Source: Alphaproteobacteria bacterium
GTDB lineage: Bacteria > Pseudomonadota > Alphaproteobacteria > SP197
Direction of reading: 5' to 3'
NCBI GenBank assembly: GCA_964291265.2
Contig: OZ219747.1
Location: 1,952,001-2,016,000 of the forward strand
DNA: 64,000 nt
A program made the translations under genes and the position numbers. Numbering within the stretch: the stretch's first letter is position 1; every line of letters starts with the position of its first letter. Under the pieces are notes generated by a model, which was not told the origin of the DNA, searched no databases, and worked only from the letters and a program-made list of their open reading frames with translations. Below, piece by piece: positions 3,088 to 11,829 of the stretch.

Positions 3088-3519
3088 ATGGAGGCCCCGA
3101 TGACACTGCCCCCCGCATTGTCCGAGCTCAACCTCAGGCGCCGCGACATCCAGAACCAGCTTGCCGACCTTGGCGACCTGCGCCCCGGCTCGCTGACGCC
3201 GCGTTTCCGCAAGTGCGGCAAGCCCACCTGCCACTGTGCCGCCCAGGGAGACCCCGGTCACGGACCGAGCTGGTCGTTGACCTGGTCTGTCGAGGGCAAG
3301 ACCCAAACCCGGATCATCCCCGCCGAGGCGGTCGAGGAAACCCAGGCGCAGATGGCCGAGTATCAGCGCGCCCGTGCTCTTATGCGTGAACTGTTCGAGG
3401 TCAGCACCCGGATGTGCGACGCGCAACTCGACGCCATCAAGGCGATTCCAAAAAAAACTTCGTCGCGGCGCTCGAACCGGAAGTCCGCCACGAGATCGTC
3501 AGCGAAGCGGCGAGCCTGA
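3088..3519 (+). CDS. ISKra4 accessory ORF (DUF6788-like, Cys/His-rich)
   Basis: LRPGSLTPRFRKCGKPTCHC...GHGPSW motif; first ORF inside the left inverted repeat. Confidence 0.75.
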   Translation: MEAPMTLPPALSELNLRRRDIQNQLADLGDLRPGSLTPRFRKCGKPTCHCAAQGDPGHGPSWSLTWSVEGKTQTRIIPAEAVEETQAQMAEYQRARALMRELFEVSTRMCDAQLDAIKAIPKKTSSRRSNRKSATRSSAKRRA

Positions 3520-4275
3520 TCGGTGTCGGCGTGCTTGACGACTTCCAGGCGATCGAGACTGAGGCCCGGCGGGTGGCATGGCAGATCATGGGGCAGGCGG
3601 TCGCCGCGAAGCTCAACGCCGATCATGCCGACGATCAGGGCCCCTGCCTGTGCGGGTGCGGCGGCAAAGCTCGCTTCGCCGGCCGCCGGCCCAAGACCTT
3701 CATCACCGCCTTGGGCCCGATGACGCTGGAACGGGCCTGGTATCACTGCGACGGCTGTCACTCAGGCTTCAGCCCGCGCGACCGCGCTCTTGGCATGGAG
3801 AACACCTTCCTGTCGCCGGCGTCGCTGCGCATGATCGGCATCGCTGCCGCCAGGATCAGCTTCGAGGGCTCCAGCGCCCTGTTGCGCGAGTTGGCCGGCC
3901 TCGCCGTCGCACCGAAGACGGTGGAACGCCACGCCGAGGCTCTCGGACGTGAGATCGCAGGCGACGAACACCGCGTCATCGAACCCGAGTTCGGCGATGC
4001 CCCCATCCTCTACCTCGGTCTCGATGGCACCGGCGTGCCGGCACGCAAGACCGAAGTCGCGGGGCGTGCGGGCAAGCAGCCCGACGGCGGCGCCAAGACC
4101 CGAGAGGCCAAGCTCGCGGTGGTGTGGTCGGCGGAAACCACCGACCAGGACGGCCGCCCCGTGCGCGATCCCGGTTCCTCCAGCGACAACGCGGCCATCG
4201 AAACCATCGCCTGCCGGGATACCGACGCCGAGCCCGCGCCCTTCGCACGGCGTATCCTGCGCGAGGCCCAGCGCC
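3414..4275 (+). pseudogene. ISKra4-family DDE transposase, N-terminal part
   Basis: CLCGCGG...RAWYHCDGCHSGFSPRD zinc ribbon, YLGLDGTGVP catalytic D, KTREAKL; cut by the IS21 insertion after EAQR. Confidence 0.85.
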
Positions 4276-4429
4276 TGTCGGCGGCGATTTAGAACGGCGG
4301 GATATTGGCGGAGAACCGCTCTTTTGGGCGCTGATCGTGTGAGTGGGTGACCACGACAGGAGAACGTGCGGCATTGGACGAAGGTCCGCCCGGTCTTTGT
4401 TTTCTGCCTATTGTTGGATCCCATTGGTC

Positions 4430-4770
4430 TTGCATTGACGTTGACGATGTCGTTCCGGTCGGCGTTTTCTGGCGTTCGGCGTTTGTGGAACGTGATGTGG
4501 GAGGGGAGCTTCAGGCTTTTGCGCGTGGTTTCGTTCTGGCGTTCTCCGGCCTCGTCGTGGTTCGTCGGGCGGGACGATCTCGAGGCTGGAGAGCTGACGG
4601 TTTCTGTTGCGCTGGGCGAAGAGGCTGCGTGCGTTGCGGTTGCGGCGGCGCAGGGTGCGGCAGGCGTCGAGTGTTTTCGGGCGGATGCTGCGACCTGTGA
4701 GCCAGTCCGGCGGCGGATCGGGCGTTGCTGCGGCTCAGCGGCTGCGGCAGTCTCGTGATGTGGTGTCGTT
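4430..4770 (-). pseudogene. Diverged, internally deleted second copy of the Toprim gene
   Basis: 4430-4575 aligns by eye to 5560-5705, and 4575-4770 aligns to ~5955-6150; the intervening ~250 bp are absent. Confidence 0.75.
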
Positions 4771-5366
4771 TGGACGGCCCGGGGGTTTCCCGGGGAGGCT
4801 GAGAGGCGCGTCGGGGTGAGACGTTCTCATTCCTGGATGGTAACGCGTGACCGCGTTCAAGGGTCTTGCGAGATTACGTGTCCCTTCCGTAGCCGCGTGG
4901 CGGTTCGATGTCCTCGAGAGCCTCGATGTCGGCATCGGCGACGCTCTGCAGGCGTTCTCCGTAAGGCGTGTCACGGAGGGTTTCGGGGATGCTGTCGAGG
5001 CGGTCACGCCATTCGTCCTGCAGGGTGCGGCAGGCGTCGAGTGTTTTCGGGCGGATGCTGCGACCTGTAAGCCAGTCCGGCCAGCGGCTGCGGCAGTCTC
5101 GTGATGCGGTGTCGTTTGGACGGCCCGGGAGTTTCCCGGGGAGGCTGAGCGGCGCGTCGGGGTGAGACGTTCTCATTCCTGGATGGTAACGCGTGACCGC
5201 GTTCAAGGGTCTTGCGGGATCACGTATCCCTTCCGTAGCCGCGTGGCGGTTCGATGTCCTCGAGGGCCTCGATGTCGGCATCGGCGACGCTCTGCAGGCG
5301 TTCTCCGTAAGGCGTGTCACGGAGGCTTTCGGGGATGCTGTCGAGGTGGTCACGCCATTCGTCCTG
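4651..5366. repeat. Tandem direct duplication (units 4651-5020 and 5021-5366)
   Basis: Near-identical 370-bp and 346-bp units (24-bp indel); junctions fall at a GCAGGG microhomology (4650, 5020, 5366). Confidence 0.9.
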
Positions 5367-5510
5367 CAGGGCGCGCAGTTCGGCCACGGCGTCGTTCCAG
5401 CGTTGCGGTCGCGAGCGCCGGTCACGGTGCTTTGGGGTGTGGACGGGAGGGATGCCGGCCTTGCGCCGTTCCCGGTATCGCCGCTGCTTTTCGGCGGGCG
5501 TGAGGGGCAT
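5220..5510 (-). CDS. Small hypothetical protein (MPLTPAEKQRRYRERR...DIEPPRGYGRDT)
   Basis: AAGGAG RBS before ATG 5510; an alternative start at 5540 overlaps the Toprim stop (ATGA); basic N-terminus, helical acidic C-terminus. Confidence 0.75.
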   Translation of the reverse strand: MPLTPAEKQRRYRERRKAGIPPVHTPKHRDRRSRPQRWNDAVAELRALQDEWRDHLDSIPESLRDTPYGERLQSVADADIEALEDIEPPRGYGRDT

Positions 5511-5536
5511 GAGTGGTCTCCTTGTGACGGACGTGG

Positions 5537-6430
5537 TCATGATCTCGCTTGTGGTTCTTTGGTCCTGGCGTTGACGACGTCGTTCCAGTCGGCGTTTTCC
5601 GGCGGTCTGCGTCTGTGGAACGAGACGTGGGAGGGGAGCTTCATCTTTTTGCGCAGGGTTTCGGCCTGTCGCTCTCCGGCCTCGTCGTGGTCCTGGGCGA
5701 GGACGATGGTCCTGACGTTGGGCAGGCTGCTTGCGGCGAGGCTGATCTGTTCGTGCTGTCTTCGCGAGGGTGCCCCGGCGGTGGAGAGGAAGGCGTGGCT
5801 GGGGGGACATTGGTCGATCTGGGCCAGGCTGAGGGCGTCGACGGCGCTTTCGGTGATGACGAGGGCCTCGAGGTCCGCGGCGGTTCCGGCGCGGACGGCG
5901 AACAGGCTTCGGGTTCCACCGGTGGCGAAGCGTTTCGGTCCGTCGGGGGGACCGATCTCGAAGCCGGTGAGCTTTCGCTTCCTGTTGCGATGGGCGAAGA
6001 GGACGCGTCCGTTGTGGTCGCGGCGGACCAGGGGGCGGCAGGTGTCGAGGGTCTCCGGGAGGATGCCGCGCCCGGTGAGCCAGTCCGGGGCCGCATCGGG
6101 CGTTGCCGCGGCCCAGAGGCTGCGGAAGTCGCGTGGCGCGGTGTCGGGTGCTGTGAAGCGGGTGCAGATGTCGGCGAAGGCCAGTCCGCGGTTGAGCATG
6201 AAGTCGATGACGGTTCCGTTGTCTTCATCGTTCTGGGTGTTGAAGTAGACCCAGTGTCCGTTGTTGAGGCACTTCGTGACGAGCTTCGGCAGGCCGGGTG
6301 CGCACAGGACGGGGTTGGCGCGTGTCGAGGCCTGTTCGTCGCGGACGTATCCCCAGTCGGCGGCGATGCGTTCGAACGGCATGCGCTTGACGGCGTCGAA
6401 GTCGACGCGGCGGGGTTTATCGGGTTTCAC
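5537..6430 (-). CDS. DUF3991 + Toprim-domain primase-like protein
   Basis: DEDNGTVIDF, WLTGRGI, RRDHNGRVLFAH, LVITESAVDALS (Toprim Glu), IVLAQDHDEAG (DxD); GTG start overlaps the istB stop. Confidence 0.85.
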   Translation of the reverse strand: MKPDKPRRVDFDAVKRMPFERIAADWGYVRDEQASTRANPVLCAPGLPKLVTKCLNNGHWVYFNTQNDEDNGTVIDFMLNRGLAFADICTRFTAPDTAPRDFRSLWAAATPDAAPDWLTGRGILPETLDTCRPLVRRDHNGRVLFAHRNRKRKLTGFEIGPPDGPKRFATGGTRSLFAVRAGTAADLEALVITESAVDALSLAQIDQCPPSHAFLSTAGAPSRRQHEQISLAASSLPNVRTIVLAQDHDEAGERQAETLRKKMKLPSHVSFHRRRPPENADWNDVVNARTKEPQARS

Positions 6431-7118
6431 GCCTGAGCCGCCAGGAGTCGCTGTCGATGGAGATGAGGGTTGCGTCGTGCATGAGCCGGTCGACGGTGCC
6501 GGCGATGCCGGAGGCGCTGGGGAAGACGCGGTCCCACTGGGCGAAGGCGAGGCTTGTCGTGACCATGGTCGAGCGGCGCTGATAGCGCCGCGAGACGATG
6601 GCGTAGAGGATGTCGGCATGGTGGCTTTCGAGGGTCACGTAGCCGATTTCGTCGAGGATGAGCAGGCGGGGCCTGGCGAGGATCGCGAGGCGGCGGCGCA
6701 GCTCGCTGCGCGAGACGGTCTCGGCGAGTGCCTCGAGCAGTTCCGGCGCCTTCTCGAAGCGGACGGTGTGGCCGTGCAGCAGGGCCTGGTGCGCCACGTT
6801 GGCGGCGATCATGGTCTTTCCGGTGCCCTGCCCGCCGACGAGCACGGCGTTGTCCGCACGGTCGACGAAGCCGAGGCCGAGGAGCGCTTCGACATGAGCC
6901 CGGCTGATGTCGCGCGGCCATGTCCAGTCGAAGTCCGCCAGGGGCTTGAAGGCGGGCAGCCGCGCCGCGGCGCGGCGGCGCTCGTGGCTGCGGGCCCTGC
7001 GGGCCTGTTCCTCGCCGCTGACCACCTCCTCGATCCATGCGGTCCCGGCGACCTCGTCCCAGCGTTCGACGAGCCCGTGGAGGCCGAGCGCCCGGGCACG
7101 CTCCCTGAGCTCGCTCAT
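6417..7118 (-). CDS. istB: IS21 helper AAA+ ATPase IstB
   Basis: Walker A GGQGTGKT, Walker B LLILDEIG, VDRLMH; ATGA overlap with istA. Confidence 0.95.
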   Translation of the reverse strand: MSELRERARALGLHGLVERWDEVAGTAWIEEVVSGEEQARRARSHERRRAAARLPAFKPLADFDWTWPRDISRAHVEALLGLGFVDRADNAVLVGGQGTGKTMIAANVAHQALLHGHTVRFEKAPELLEALAETVSRSELRRRLAILARPRLLILDEIGYVTLESHHADILYAIVSRRYQRRSTMVTTSLAFAQWDRVFPSASGIAGTVDRLMHDATLISIDSDSWRLRRETR

Positions 7119-8608
7119 GTCTTGTTCCTGGCGCTGGCTTCGGGCCTGTCGTAGGCGTCGAGAGCGGTCCCCCGCGGCGTCGTGCCACGGCCGCCGCGGC
7201 CGTCGTCGGCGATGCTGAGGGGCGGCAGGCCCTGCTCCCGGCGGCGCTCCTCGATGATGACGCGCACGGTTTCGGGGTGGCACGAGCCGCGCTCCAGCGC
7301 CGTGGCGACAGCCCGGTCGAGAGCGTCGGCGCCGTGCGCGTTGAGAAGCGTCTCCAGCATCCGGGCGCAGGAGGCCACGTTGCGCCCGTTGGTCCCGGCG
7401 CGCGCCAGCATCTCCTCGGCCCGCGGCACGGTGCGCAGGACCCGGTCGCGGACGCTCATGGAGCGGGCCCGCCGCTTGCCCGCGGCGATCGCCCTGGCAT
7501 GCTCCGGATCGGTGACGGCCTGCTTCCTGTTGTAGGAGCGTCGGTGGCGCGCGACCTCGTCGGCGCCGTCGAGGATGCGAACCTCGTCGCGGTCGGCGAC
7601 CAGCGTCAGCAGGGCCTTGGAGAAGCTACCCGGAACGCTGTAGTCGTTGGTGTCGAAGCGGGCGTGGCAGGTCTTGTCGATGCGCACCGGGCGGACCTCG
7701 TGATGCGGGAAGGGATCGGCGGGAAGGACGATCAGGTGCTCCCTCTCCCGGGCGAAGGCGTCCCGCACCAGGAGACTGTCGTCGTCCGGCCAGGGCCGCT
7801 CCGCGGCGGCGCCGAAGCACCACTCCCGAACTGCGGCGTTGAGCTCGCCGAGCGGGACCGTGATGTCGCGCCCGGCGAAGAACCCGGTGCGCGCGAAGCG
7901 CACACGGCGTTCCACGCGGCCCTTCTCCTGCGGGCTCCTGGGCCAGGCGGCGCTCGGTTCGAAGGCATAGTGGGCCGCGAGGCCGAGCAGCATCGGATGA
8001 TAGGTGACCGCCTTGCCGCGGCGCGTCACCACGGCACTCTTCAGGTTGTCGTACAGAAGCCTCCGCGGCACACCCCCGAATGCCGCGAAAGCCTCGACAT
8101 GGCCTTGCAGGAAGCTGGCCATCCGCGCGTCGTGGAACAGGCTCAGGACAGTCTGGCGCGAGTAGCTGAGGGTGACGAGAAGCCCCATGAGCCTGCGCTC
8201 CGCCCGGCCGATGCGGACCTTCCCGAACTCGGCCCAGTCAACCTGCGCCTGCTCGCCCGGAAGGAAGCTCAGCCGCAGCGACGGCTCGGGCCTCTTCACC
8301 GGCCTCAGCCCAAGGCGGCGCAGGTCGTGACGGAAGTGATCCTCGCCGCCGCGGTAGCCCAGAGCCACGACCTGTCGCCAGAGCGTGCTGGCCGGAAGGT
8401 CCGGCGACGCCTCAAGACGCTCCCCGAGGAAGGCAACGAAGGGGTCGATGAGCTTGGCCCGCGGCCGCCGCTCCTGCCCCGACGCCTTGAGCGCCCGCGT
8501 CACCGTGCCGTGGTGCACGCCGAGATGCCGGGCAATCGTCCCCACAGCCCAGCCCTCGGCCCGCGACAGCCGCACGATCGTCGCCCGCGTGTCCTCGTCG
8601 ATCGCCAT
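7115..8608 (-). CDS. istA: IS21-family transposase IstA
   Basis: N-terminal HTH; QVDWAEFG, LLYDNLKSAV, KGRVERRVRF (DDE); FDTNDYSVP. Confidence 0.95.
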   Translation of the reverse strand: MAIDEDTRATIVRLSRAEGWAVGTIARHLGVHHGTVTRALKASGQERRPRAKLIDPFVAFLGERLEASPDLPASTLWRQVVALGYRGGEDHFRHDLRRLGLRPVKRPEPSLRLSFLPGEQAQVDWAEFGKVRIGRAERRLMGLLVTLSYSRQTVLSLFHDARMASFLQGHVEAFAAFGGVPRRLLYDNLKSAVVTRRGKAVTYHPMLLGLAAHYAFEPSAAWPRSPQEKGRVERRVRFARTGFFAGRDITVPLGELNAAVREWCFGAAAERPWPDDDSLLVRDAFAREREHLIVLPADPFPHHEVRPVRIDKTCHARFDTNDYSVPGSFSKALLTLVADRDEVRILDGADEVARHRRSYNRKQAVTDPEHARAIAAGKRRARSMSVRDRVLRTVPRAEEMLARAGTNGRNVASCARMLETLLNAHGADALDRAVATALERGSCHPETVRVIIEERRREQGLPPLSIADDGRGGRGTTPRGTALDAYDRPEASARNKT

Positions 8609-8640
8609 GAACTCCCTCCCTTTGGTTCCTCAACGCCGCA

Positions 8641-9171
8641 TCACGGGTCCCTCAGCACCACATGCGTCACGACCCGTCCGCATCTGGCGCACCGAAGCGG
8701 CGATTCGCGCCGCTCTTGCGCCTTCACAACCGCAGGTAGGGAGGTCGGCAGCAGTCGGGAAGGGTGGTCCGTAACGATTTCTTCAGAACCGGCGTCTCCA
8801 GACACCGCCGGAACGTCGCCAAGCAGCACCACAGCAGACGTCTGCGTGCCCATGATCTCGGCAACCATCGCCGCCCTGGCCTTCAACGCACGCGCCTCCT
8901 CCGCCTTGCGGAGCCGGTAACGCCGCTGGCGGTGACGGCCCGTCTCACGGCCCTTCAGCGTGCTCTGGTAGCGACGACGCGACGCGCGGCGCCGCTCGAT
9001 CCGGGACCGCTCCCTGCACTCCTTGGAGCAATACACATGTCCCCGGTCACACGACCGGCAGAGAACAACCTGCCGCTGACACCGCCTGCAGTTGAACAGT
9101 CGTCCTGTCGTGCACACCGTCCGTCTCGAGAGCGGGGGTGGACCCGGACGCAAAATGGCTCGACAATACAC
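8641..9171 (-). CDS. Cys-rich zinc-finger/basic protein upstream of istA (start uncertain)
   Basis: FNCRRCQRQVVLCRSCDRGHVYCSKEC followed by an Arg-rich helix; C-terminal CARCG. Confidence 0.75.
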   Translation of the reverse strand: MYCRAILRPGPPPLSRRTVCTTGRLFNCRRCQRQVVLCRSCDRGHVYCSKECRERSRIERRRASRRRYQSTLKGRETGRHRQRRYRLRKAEEARALKARAAMVAEIMGTQTSAVVLLGDVPAVSGDAGSEEIVTDHPSRLLPTSLPAVVKAQERRESPLRCARCGRVVTHVVLRDP

Positions 9172-9435
9172 GGGAGTTCGGTCCCCCGTGACCGGCTCGT
9201 CCGGGTGCTGCGCCGGGGGGCGTCACAACTCCGCCCGGCATCGCATCGCTCTTTCTCTTGATGCCGATCTAGCATCCACCCGGGGCGGCGGCAAAGACGC
9301 CGCCCCGGGACCGGACAACGCGACCCGCCCACAGGGAAGACAAACAATCCCGCGAGTGCCTCGGAACCGGAACCCTCCCGGCAACCGTCACCAAGACCGA
9401 AGCAGAGGTCGACGGAACCCGAACCGGACCAAAAC

Positions 9436-9530
9436 GACAATAGGAAAAGACGGCGGCGCTCGGGGAGACAACCAGCCGAACACTCAAACCACGACAACAG
9501 GACGTGACAATAGGACCTGACAACAGGGAA
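9436..9530. repeat. Subterminal GACAAYAGG direct repeats
   Basis: Copies at 9493, 9506 and 9519 (13-bp period) plus one at 9436. Confidence 0.75.
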
Positions 9531-9595
9531 GAAACACGACCCTGACAAAGCGCGGCAAATCGCCGAAATCCCGCCGTTCTATGCAGCCATCAACA

Positions 9596-10122
9596 GCGCC
9601 GCGGCTTCGACAGCGCAGCGCGCCAGGTCCTGCTCGGCGACGGTGCGCCATGGATAGGGAACTTCGCCAACGAGCACTTCCCCGACGCTGTCCAGATCGT
9701 CGACATCTTCCACGCCAAGGGCCATCTGTTCGATGTCGCCAAGGCGATCTACAACACACAGCAGCGAGATCGGCGAACGATGGGCCAGAAAGCGGCGCGA
9801 GGAGCTTGATGAGGGCCGCGTCGACGACGTGATCGCCGCCCTGCTGAGCCATGCCGCAAGCTGCGAGGAAGCCCGCAAGAACGCCGAGTACTTCGCCACC
9901 AACCGGGAGCGAATGAACTATCCGAGGTTCAGGGCGATGGGCCTGTGCGCTGCCTCCGGCGTGGTCGAGGGAGGCTGCAAGAACATCGTCGGCACCCGCC
10001 TCAAGCAAGGCGGCATGCACTGGACCGTCGACGGCGCCAACGCCATCATCGCCCTGCGCTGCGCCGTCGAAAGCAACCGCTTCGACGACTTCTGGGAACG
10101 GCGCGCCAGCGCAAGAGCATGA
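9596..10122 (+). pseudogene. ISKra4 transposase, C-terminal part (frameshift near 9755)
   Basis: LLGDGAPWI, QIVDIFHAKGHL, then in another frame RMNYPRFRAMG...SGVVEGGCK...RLKQGGMHW. Confidence 0.85.
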
Positions 10123-10286: not shown

Positions 10287-11372
10287 TCACTCGCGCTCGG
10301 CCAGCAACGCCAAGAGCGGCGGGTTGATGTAGAGGTTCTCGCGCCCTGCCTTGATCTCCTCAAGGAGGCCTTCGGCCGCAAGGGCTTTCAGGTAGACGGC
10401 GGCCGTCTGGCGCTTGGCGATATCCGCTTTGACCATGTCGCTGATCCGGCAGCAGGGATGCACGAAGATGAGCTCCGCCAACTCCCGGGAGTAGATTTTC
10501 GGCATCCTCTGCCGAATGGCAGCGCCCGTCTCGTCGAGAAGCTCCCGGATCGCACTGATCTTCGCCGTCGTCCATTCCGCCGTCGTTCTGACGGTCTCAA
10601 GAATGAAGAGTATCCAAGCTTCCCAGTCCTGTCGGGTCGTCACCTCCAGAAGATGCCGGTAGTACAGCGCCTTGTTTCGGATGATGTGCCGGCTGAGATA
10701 AAGGACGGGAACGTCGAGCAGGCCCTTGTCGACGAGATAGAGCAGGTTCAGCACTCGTCCGGTCCGGCCGTTTCCGTCAACGAATGGATGGATCGCCTCG
10801 AACTGATAATGCATGACCGCAAGCCGGATCAGCGGGTCGATCTCCTCGGCCTCGTGAATGTAGCGCTCCCAATTGGCGAGCTTGCTCCGGAGAACGTTCT
10901 CTCCCTCCGGCGGAGTGTAGATGACTTTCCGGGTTGCATCGTTCATCAGCGCCGTTCCCGGCGTGTTGCGAATGTCCAGCTCCACTCCCTTGATCGTTCG
11001 ACAGACTTCGACCGCGATGGCGGTCGAAACCGGCCGTTGGTTCAGCATCTCGAATCCGCGGTGCAAGGCGGTGCGGTAGCGCAGTGCCTCTTTGGTGGCT
11101 GGGTCGGCCCGACCCGTAGCGTCGTTGGCATAGCGGAACAGCCGGTCGGCCGTCGTGATGATGTTCTCGATCTCGGAACTCGCCTGCGCTTCGAGCAGGG
11201 GGATCGAGTTAATCAGCATCGCCTGGTTCGGGATGAGCCGCTCGGAAACCCGGAGCTCCGCTAGTGCCGCGCGCGCGGCGATGCAGCTCCGAAGAATGGC
11301 CTTGGTCTCGGTTTCCGAAGCCGGCGGCAGGTTCGGAAGGTCATTGAAAGGACGCTTGGGATCGAACGTCAT
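10287..11372 (-). CDS. fic: Protein adenylyltransferase Fic, class II (SoFic-type: Fic_N, Fic, C-terminal HTH)
   Basis: HPFVDGNGRTGR active-site motif; inhibitory SSEIEN motif; C-terminal KRQTAAVYL HTH. Confidence 0.93.
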   Translation of the reverse strand: MTFDPKRPFNDLPNLPPASETETKAILRSCIAARAALAELRVSERLIPNQAMLINSIPLLEAQASSEIENIITTADRLFRYANDATGRADPATKEALRYRTALHRGFEMLNQRPVSTAIAVEVCRTIKGVELDIRNTPGTALMNDATRKVIYTPPEGENVLRSKLANWERYIHEAEEIDPLIRLAVMHYQFEAIHPFVDGNGRTGRVLNLLYLVDKGLLDVPVLYLSRHIIRNKALYYRHLLEVTTRQDWEAWILFILETVRTTAEWTTAKISAIRELLDETGAAIRQRMPKIYSRELAELIFVHPCCRISDMVKADIAKRQTAAVYLKALAAEGLLEEIKAGRENLYINPPLLALLAERE

Positions 11373-11472
11373 GTCGATGTATCCTGCTCCCGTCGACACG
11401 TGTTCCGGACATGTCGATCTCATCGACACCTCACTCAAACATGTCGATGAAGAGAGTGTATATCGACATGTT
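11370..11472. promoter_or_regulatory. Array of three TGTCGAY inverted-repeat pairs upstream of fic
   Basis: ATGTCGAT-N13-GTCGACAC (11371-11399), ATGTCGAT-N3-ATCGACAC (11411-11429), perfect AACATGTCGAT-N13-ATCGACATGTT (11438-11472). Confidence 0.7.
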
Positions 11473-11829
11473 GCGCTGCAGCAAGCACAAGGGCCGACAA
11501 TGTCGCCCACTGTCCATCGGGCGCTCCAAGCTCTCTACTGCGGGCGGAAGATGCCGCCGAGACCTTGGCGCTGACGCGGCCGATCGATGAGCGGTTCCTG
11601 AAATCCTTGCTGCATCGCGCCCACCCGATGGCGCTTCGCCTGCGCCGGCGGGTGTGATTCCGGCGTTGCCCCCTATGTCAGTGCCTCGATGAGGGCGTCG
11701 AGGGTCCGGTTGGGACGCTCCGCCATCATCATGTGACCTTAACCCCTCGAGGACGATCAAGCGGCCGTGGGGGAGGGCATCGAGGAAGGACCGGGTATGG
11801 CGCGGCGGTGTCATCATGTCGCGGTCGAC

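Follow-up and report, generated by a model that had tools for sequence, protein, structure and literature searches.

An IS21-family insertion sequence carrying a DUF3991/Toprim primase-like gene in an alphaproteobacterial genome

General features of the element

A 64,000-nucleotide stretch of the genome of an Alphaproteobacteria bacterium (contig OZ219747.1, positions 1,952,001 to 2,016,000; hereafter the window, in which all coordinates below are given unless a locus is named) contains an IS21-family insertion sequence with a primase-like gene downstream of its istA and istB genes. The element is an undescribed variant of IS21 in that no description of it was found in the accessible part of the literature; ISfinder, TnCentral, subscription papers and bioRxiv supplements lay outside this search and could list it. 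The element, its flanks and its genes are as follows.

4271-4275, no strand: target-site duplication GCGCC, first copy
4276-9595: IS21-family element, 5,320 bp, delimited by its ends and the duplication
4276-4303, plus strand: terminal inverted repeat at the downstream (3') end; agrees with the other end at 21 of 28 bases
5220-5510, minus strand: 96-amino acid (aa) gene; AAGGAG before ATG 5510, from which homologues match
5537-6430, minus strand: DUF3991/Toprim primase-like protein, 297 aa; DUF3991 and Toprim_2 matches
6417-7118, minus strand: IstB AAA+ helper ATPase, 233 aa; PF01695, 172 bits (cut-off 24)
7115-8608, minus strand: IstA DDE transposase, 497 aa; NF033546, 223 bits (cut-off 160)
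8641-9117, minus strand: Cys-rich protein, predicted Zn-finger, 158 aa; a basic helix follows six invariant Cys
9568-9595, minus strand: terminal inverted repeat, 5' (upstream) end of the element
9596-9600, no strand: target-site duplication GCGCC, second copy

The ends begin with TGTC at 4276 and finish with AACA at 9595, which is the TGT...ACA type, and a fuzzy search for the 14-bp end core motif alone found one site per end. The IS21 ends with a clean 5-bp duplication and the five co-oriented genes reported in a first-pass annotation of this DNA were all recovered, the genes on the minus strand. IstB also matches NF038214 with 192 bits, just under the cut-off of 200. The same annotation held that three gene junctions overlap. 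Two of them do: istA and istB share an ATGA, and the start of the primase-like gene overlaps the end of istB by 14 nucleotides (nt). The 96-aa gene begins 26 nt after the primase stop. This gene was placed at 5510-5220 because ATG 5510 follows a ribosome-binding-like AAGGAG and because most of the best homologues have lengths of 94-96 aa; the upstream ATG has no homologue support, so the third overlap was not confirmed. The Zn-finger gene lies 32 nt from istA, and its start is most likely GTG 9117.

The element shares with IS21 and IS5376 an IstA that passes the family model, a PF01695 IstB, the ATGA overlap, TGT...ACA ends and duplications of 5-7 bp. It differs from them in being 5.3 kb long with three extra genes, whereas IS21 is described with two proteins in the available part of PMC11208146.

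Copies and recent activity in the host genome

The host genome (4.83 Mb, 2 contigs) contains 30 full copies of the element at 98-100% identity, which together make up 197 kb, or 4.1% of the genome. Target duplications flank 26 of the 30 copies (21 of 5 bp, four of 6 bp and one of 7 bp). The istA, istB and Cys-rich genes are intact in all 30 copies, the primase gene in 29 and the small gene in 27. The element is a recently active transposon. The primase gene lies within the ends in 30 copies, in agreement with the earlier proposal that the extra genes moved with the element, and the concern that the arrangement might be peculiar to the window copy is removed by these copies and by the recurrence of the gene order in 19 of 22 assemblies described below. 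Within this genome, the primase gene varies at two synonymous and three non-synonymous sites and one stop; the copies are too young for a selection test.

A flank of repeated DNA is present at 22 of the 30 copies, compared with 65 of 300 random 200-bp windows. Five copies are inserted in other copies of the element, up to three deep, and target immunity therefore looks weak or absent. Nested copies lie at G000:C2:295923-308929, 4058043-4075257 and 4237410-4248078. No circle or tandem-dimer junction was seen as abutted ends in the genome, where the ends have 42 and 49 matches, and no back-joint occurs in the assembled contigs of three runs from one study, contigs being a form of data that drops rare forms.

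Relatives, co-inheritance and selection

A scan of GTDB genomes, in which the best 80 of 247 confirmed stretches were followed up, gave 76 loci. The primase gene has istB directly upstream in 63 of the 68 close loci, and these 63 represent 19 of 22 assemblies; the remaining five loci are 5'-truncated fragments. The order Zn-finger-istA-istB-primase is likewise found in 19 of 22 assemblies, which are Alphaproteobacteria metagenome-assembled genomes (MAGs) and one Acidimicrobiales MAG. Copy comparison placed the primase within matching ends of multi-copy elements of 4.0-4.7 kb in eight assemblies.

The ratio of non-synonymous to synonymous substitution rates (dN/dS) was compared among 13 elements that are 49-97% identical in IstA (77 pairs for each gene). 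The median values are 0.43 for the primase, 0.42 for IstA and 0.36 for IstB; the three closest informative pairs gave values of 0.18-0.21. All compared pairs were kept by a dS filter and are non-independent, and dS in GC-rich DNA is underestimated by the simple method used. The primase tree shares six of 11 splits with IstA and six of 11 with IstB, and none of 2000 shuffles reaches six. The IstA and IstB trees share three of 11 splits, fewer than the primase shares with either. The congruence of IstA and Toprim phylogenies, which the first-pass annotation had named as a check, is thus borne out. Purifying selection acts on the primase to the same degree as on istA, and the two genes have a common history.

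IS21 elements with the order Zn-finger-istA-istB-small gene occur in rhizobia, Burkholderiales and Methylotuvimicrobium (annotated in RefSeq, for example in NC_006823.1 and NZ_CP050299.1). They carry the same Cys-rich gene and the same upstream stem (described below), their IstA is 41-47% identical to that of the window, and in most of them a third gene overlaps the istB end, as in the window element. They differ in that this gene encodes 60-73 aa and is annotated as hypothetical only, and in the longer C-terminal tail of their IstB. Examples of the small gene are L089:5233-5445, L090:5763-5984 and L091:5757-5972. Since these relatives lack a primase and most of them have a small gene in the corresponding slot, the primase of this clade most likely took the place of an older third gene. 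By comparison of these loci, the Zn-finger gene predates the primase in the lineage. In two elements (L063 and L064) the primase occurs together with an outgroup-like IstB; they may represent an early stage or a recombinant. IstA was matched in three of 400 other genomes of the class and in five of 60 relatives (E<=1e-40).

The primase-like protein

The predicted structure (predicted local distance difference test score, pLDDT, 88) folds like the primase domains of T7 gp4, DnaG and Twinkle. The best fold match is the T7 gp4 primase (Z 15.4, root-mean-square deviation 3.5, 180 residues aligned; Foldseek E 1e-7 to 1e-5), which is also the best sequence match (profile E 2e-11), with the acidic residues aligned. 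The architecture is a Cys-less N-terminal domain followed by a T7/DnaG-type polymerase domain, made up of an N-terminal subdomain and Toprim. The acidic residues E194, D198, D247, D249, D281 and D284 are all present, and the first four align to T7 acidic residues. The Toprim Glu (Glu194) and DxD motif (Asp247-x-Asp249) are intact, as originally stated. All four of E194, D247, D249 and D281 are retained in 13 of 14 proteins of the window clade and in 5/5, 10/10, 38/39 and 7/8 proteins of four other transposon types.

T7/DnaG primases reportedly need a zinc domain. The N-terminal domain is well folded in the model, and its residues 9-93 lack a conserved Cys in every lineage; relaxase-fused relatives also lack the Cys set. 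With no Cys set, the protein is not classed as DnaG and is described here as primase-like, by its predicted fold and active site. T7 gp4 and DnaG have the polymerase-domain fold and the acidic residues in common with the window protein, which differs from them in lacking the conserved Cys set and a helicase or helicase-binding domain. Defence models gave nothing beyond a weak and partial hit to a DnaG-like DRT model (E 7e-6).

Relatives of the protein outside transposons are linked to DNA transfer. A relaxase domain is present in 10 of 24 long homologues picked from 150 listed, and fusions to MobV, MobF, MobP and MobQ relaxases were found. A stand-alone member precedes the virB genes on pLD209. 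The nearest relatives outside transposons (30-38% identity) are in Myxococcota loci with TrbI, an S26 peptidase, a topoisomerase and an integrase. A DUF3991 gene is up-regulated together with tra genes on a rhizobial plasmid, according to the available part of PMC13055273. These conjugative or mobilizable proteins have the same domain pair and catalytic residues as the window protein, the gene of which differs in sitting in a DDE transposon with no relaxase recognised there: general library scans gave no match to relaxase families among the genes inside the ends (the origin of transfer, oriT, was not searched). Sequence relationships suggest that the primase gene was taken from plasmid-transfer machinery. 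No activity test of the DUF3991/Toprim family was found in the accessible literature.

Other transposons carrying the same primase family

A second element in the host genome, 5,161 bp long, encodes an rve transposase, an ExeA-like AAA_22 ATPase, an AAA_25 helicase and a DUF3991/Toprim protein that is 30% identical to that of the window. Four full copies that were checked have 5-bp duplications. One copy lies at G000:C2:460796-465955 (L001:297-5456), with about five more elsewhere; its ends are TGAGCG...CGCTTA. Searching with the primase family of this second element gave further layouts. In one, a transposase, an AAA ATPase and the primase occur without the helicase, in multi-copy elements of 4.0-4.2 kb with the gene inside the ends (L252:3066-7070, L256:3029-7193 and L270:2833-6866). 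In another, a third lineage of IS21, the primase is convergent to istAB inside multi-copy elements of 3.4-3.5 kb (L261:5911-9333 and L264:4517-8036).

A five-gene IS21 layout, Zn-finger-ParB-istA-istB-primase, was found in JGI metagenomes (L183 and L228); the L228 contig has matching inverted repeats at its start and end and appears complete. The metagenome counts come from the best 80 of at least 505 loci and are query-dependent shares, not family-wide ones. Seventy-five of these 80 loci have a near-complete primase, which lies directly after istB in 42; of the others, 23 have no recognised transposon partner, eight are too short to be assigned and two have other layouts. ParB is present at 22 loci and all five genes at 16. 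The primase of this ParB lineage was matched in one of 400 other genomes of the phylum. Homology between the Zn-finger proteins of the window clade and the ParB lineage was considered and is not supported (probability 5.9%, E 0.006). Every transposon type with the primase has an AAA+ helper, the labelling having looked for those partners only.

In the IstB tree (44 rows), the three IS21 lineages form separate starred clades, and four rows of the window clade labelled as primase-less carry broken or cut-off primase genes. In the primase tree (85 rows, with the ParB lineage thinned to 14 of 39; a quick method with long-branch warnings), the Myxococcota genes form the sister group of the window clade, the ParB lineage falls together with relaxase fusions and the remaining three layouts are mixed with one another. 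Approximately unbiased (AU) tests on a 45-row subset reject a single clade for the IS21-borne primases (p 3e-6) and for all transposon-borne primases (p 3e-5); the groups were defined by gene neighbourhood and tested after the tree had been seen, with no root set. The primase marks the window clade, in partial support of the distinct class of IstAB transposon proposed at first pass, and the trees and AU tests add that primase-bearing IstAB elements arose more than once. As no root was set, some primases may have been transferred back to plasmids.

Accessory genes and other features

The remaining features of the element and its insertion site are as follows.

3414-10122, plus strand: ISKra4-family transposase gene split by the element (the target, not part of the element)
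4436-4768, minus strand: remains of a second, decayed primase-like gene, in two pieces with 81-84% DNA identity to the intact gene
4736-5081, minus strand: internal duplication unit of 346 bp; repeat of the 3' half of the small gene plus a short primase piece
9125-9258, minus strand: conserved non-coding segment of about 130 nt before the Zn-finger gene; conserved across the clade

The 96-aa gene was found in only one other element type among the related elements. Its family comprises 1,097 clusters (E<=0.001) and is multi-copy in four of five genomes searched. Members occur after istB in unrelated IS21s and beside an IS110 transposase (L002, L283, L289 and L295). No Pfam, NCBIfam, PHROG, PADLOC or plasmid match was obtained, only unnamed Atlas clusters. 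From this distribution, the family is a candidate recurrent accessory of insertion sequences. The first-pass view of the five genes as a fixed, coupled module is rejected: the 96-aa gene is variable cargo, sporadic among relatives and with a start that does not overlap the primase, and the Zn-finger gene also occurs in IS21s without a primase.

The last 940 bp of the element, which include the 3' tail at 4436-5219, hold pieces of the decayed second primase gene and a repeat of the end of the small gene. The primase pieces cover about residues 96-167 and 247-287, and the region of the catalytic Glu is deleted. The 346-bp duplication is missing from two 4.97-kb copies in the genome.

The Zn-finger gene has a dN/dS of about 0.55 (median, 54 pairs). 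The conserved segment upstream of it contains a stem of 11 pairs (arms 9245-9235 and 9216-9206) that covaries. Across 13 sequences, nine of them primase-less, the stem is paired in 80% of cells, compared with 19-48% for slid controls; it was picked from the same 13 sequences and is favoured over these controls for that reason. There are 16 two-sided changes, a number reached in none of 500 shuffles. The segment matches no Rfam family and is possibly a regulatory RNA or an operator bound by the Cys-rich protein. The stem is common to primase-less relatives and is disfavoured as a primase start signal, and the Zn-finger protein, which also occurs in such relatives, is disfavoured as the missing zinc domain of the primase acting in trans. 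A perfect 12-bp GC-rich hairpin at 9279-9309, in the 5' non-coding region, is unconserved in most relatives. No sigma-70 promoter-like site was seen, and terminator-like sites are at chance level.

The element is inserted in an ISKra4-family transposase gene. NF033572 matches both halves of this gene, and the frame is restored once the element is removed in silico; an additional frameshift lies near 9750. The empty site is represented by contigs of two runs, which join across the insertion point. The target ISKra4-type element has a DUF6788 gene upstream (3088-3519) and a few further copies in the genome. At 1352-1950 there is a pair of genes which we take to be BrnT/BrnA-like and of toxin-antitoxin type, and at 10287-11510, by the ISKra4 end, a gene presumably encoding a Fic-like protein; both labels are based on sequence motifs.

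Proposed mechanism and alternative explanations

IS21 elements have two proteins that are essential, IstA and IstB, and copy-out/paste-in transposition has been proposed for them in the available part of PMC11208146, a text with no occurrence of "primase". IS21 is also listed among the families with circular intermediates and a 3'OH-primed copy step in the available part of 10.1101/2023.06.07.543989. In copy-out, the circular copy is synthesised from a 3'OH; we propose that this synthesis would displace a single-stranded bridged copy. The element-encoded primase would lay an RNA primer on the single strand, as its relaxase-linked relatives would on transferred strands, host polymerase III would complete the second strand, and IstA and IstB would insert the circle with a duplication of 5-7 bp. 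A single-stranded bridged copy would need a primer, a need that a relaxase-linked primase would likewise meet after transfer. Because sister IS21s lack the primase and the host has dnaG and priA, the primase would be a rate-enhancing accessory and not essential.

IS911 circle formation reportedly needs host DnaG, and Bacteroides NBU1 is said to need a primase-like protein for excision. The pairing of an AAA_25 helicase with the primase in one transposon type is a further point in favour of priming. We regard the synthesis of the second strand of a copy-out intermediate by the element primase as evenly poised between true and false. The wider proposal is that ATPase-assisted DDE transposons repeatedly captured conjugation primases to run their own replicative step, forming a polyphyletic self-priming class in which one type also captured a helicase and for which the 30-copy IS21, with its intact active site, is a test case. 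This is a real possibility that we hold slightly more doubtful than the second-strand role itself. The insertion sequence excision enhancer (IEE), a PrimPol-helicase, is likewise a primase, and the insertion sequences on which it acts have circular intermediates (10.1101/2023.06.07.543989, available part); it differs from the element primase in having an archaeo-eukaryotic primase (AEP) fold and not Toprim, in being encoded outside the element and in promoting element loss.

Several observations weigh against a priming role. In addition to the missing Cys set, D198 is Asp in the window protein and Asn in five of 14 close relatives, and one position that is basic in T7 (Arg124 region) has a non-basic residue in the window clade. 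Fusion to a transposase or IstB was seen in none of the 24 long homologues mentioned above. The next relatives (six plasmid and four genome loci) carry the Cys-rich gene and istAB with no primase, and the host has intact dnaG and priA genes, both above cut-offs. The slot after istB holds several unrelated genes, which makes adjacency alone weak, and one multi-copy IS21 with the third-lineage end motif (L306) has the 96-aa gene in place of the primase. Compensation for a lost host primase was also considered and is rejected, since host dnaG and priA pass their cut-offs.

The absent zinc ligands and the D198N changes would fit a protein with a non-catalytic role in transposition, one that binds or protects single-stranded or branched intermediates or that brings in or drives off replication proteins of the host at the transpososome, and co-inheritance and selection fit such a role equally well. 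Against it, hardly any variation is seen in the four acidic residues across five transposon types and the plasmid relatives, which points to a metal site in use, and the relaxase-fused relatives are without the Cys set too. We consider the non-catalytic role unlikely. A slightly smaller probability is given to selected cargo that acts outside the transposition reaction and favours spread or persistence of the element, for example by priming single-stranded DNA in conjugative transfer of the carrier or by easing replication stress in a genome crowded with insertion sequences. Conjugation is the native setting of the family, the host is dense in insertion sequences (as the 65 repeated windows among 300 indicate), the slot after istB holds other cargo, and one lineage has its primase convergent to istAB, outside the operon. 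The AAA+ helper in every transposon type, within the limits of the labelling, speaks against such cargo, as does the gene content inside the elements, in which no relaxase was recognised.

An inert hitchhiker, amplified by a successful transposon, is very improbable and is largely refuted by the selection data. The copies within the genome are too young to speak against it and the second gene copy in the element has decayed, but the dN/dS of the primase equals that of IstA across the compared elements, and frames and catalytic residues are intact in five element types, with repeated capture. The element is a real variant of IS21, the accessory gene of which is well supported; a priming mechanism for it is testable and unproven.

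Implications

For the release of the second strand in IS21, even the 2024 structure paper still has no more than a proposal (copy-out/paste-in). A direct handle on this step is offered by an IS21 with its own primase, as one active site can be tested against circles and insertions. If element-encoded priming is false, the element nevertheless represents an undescribed, well-defined subgroup of IS21 in which three conserved parts are uncharacterised. If it is true, it would give the first function for the DUF3991/Toprim family, which is common on conjugative plasmids, and bacterial insertion sequences would not depend entirely on replication proteins of the host for their replicative step. An element with its own primase could then have a wider host range, and such independence could also account for very high copy numbers.

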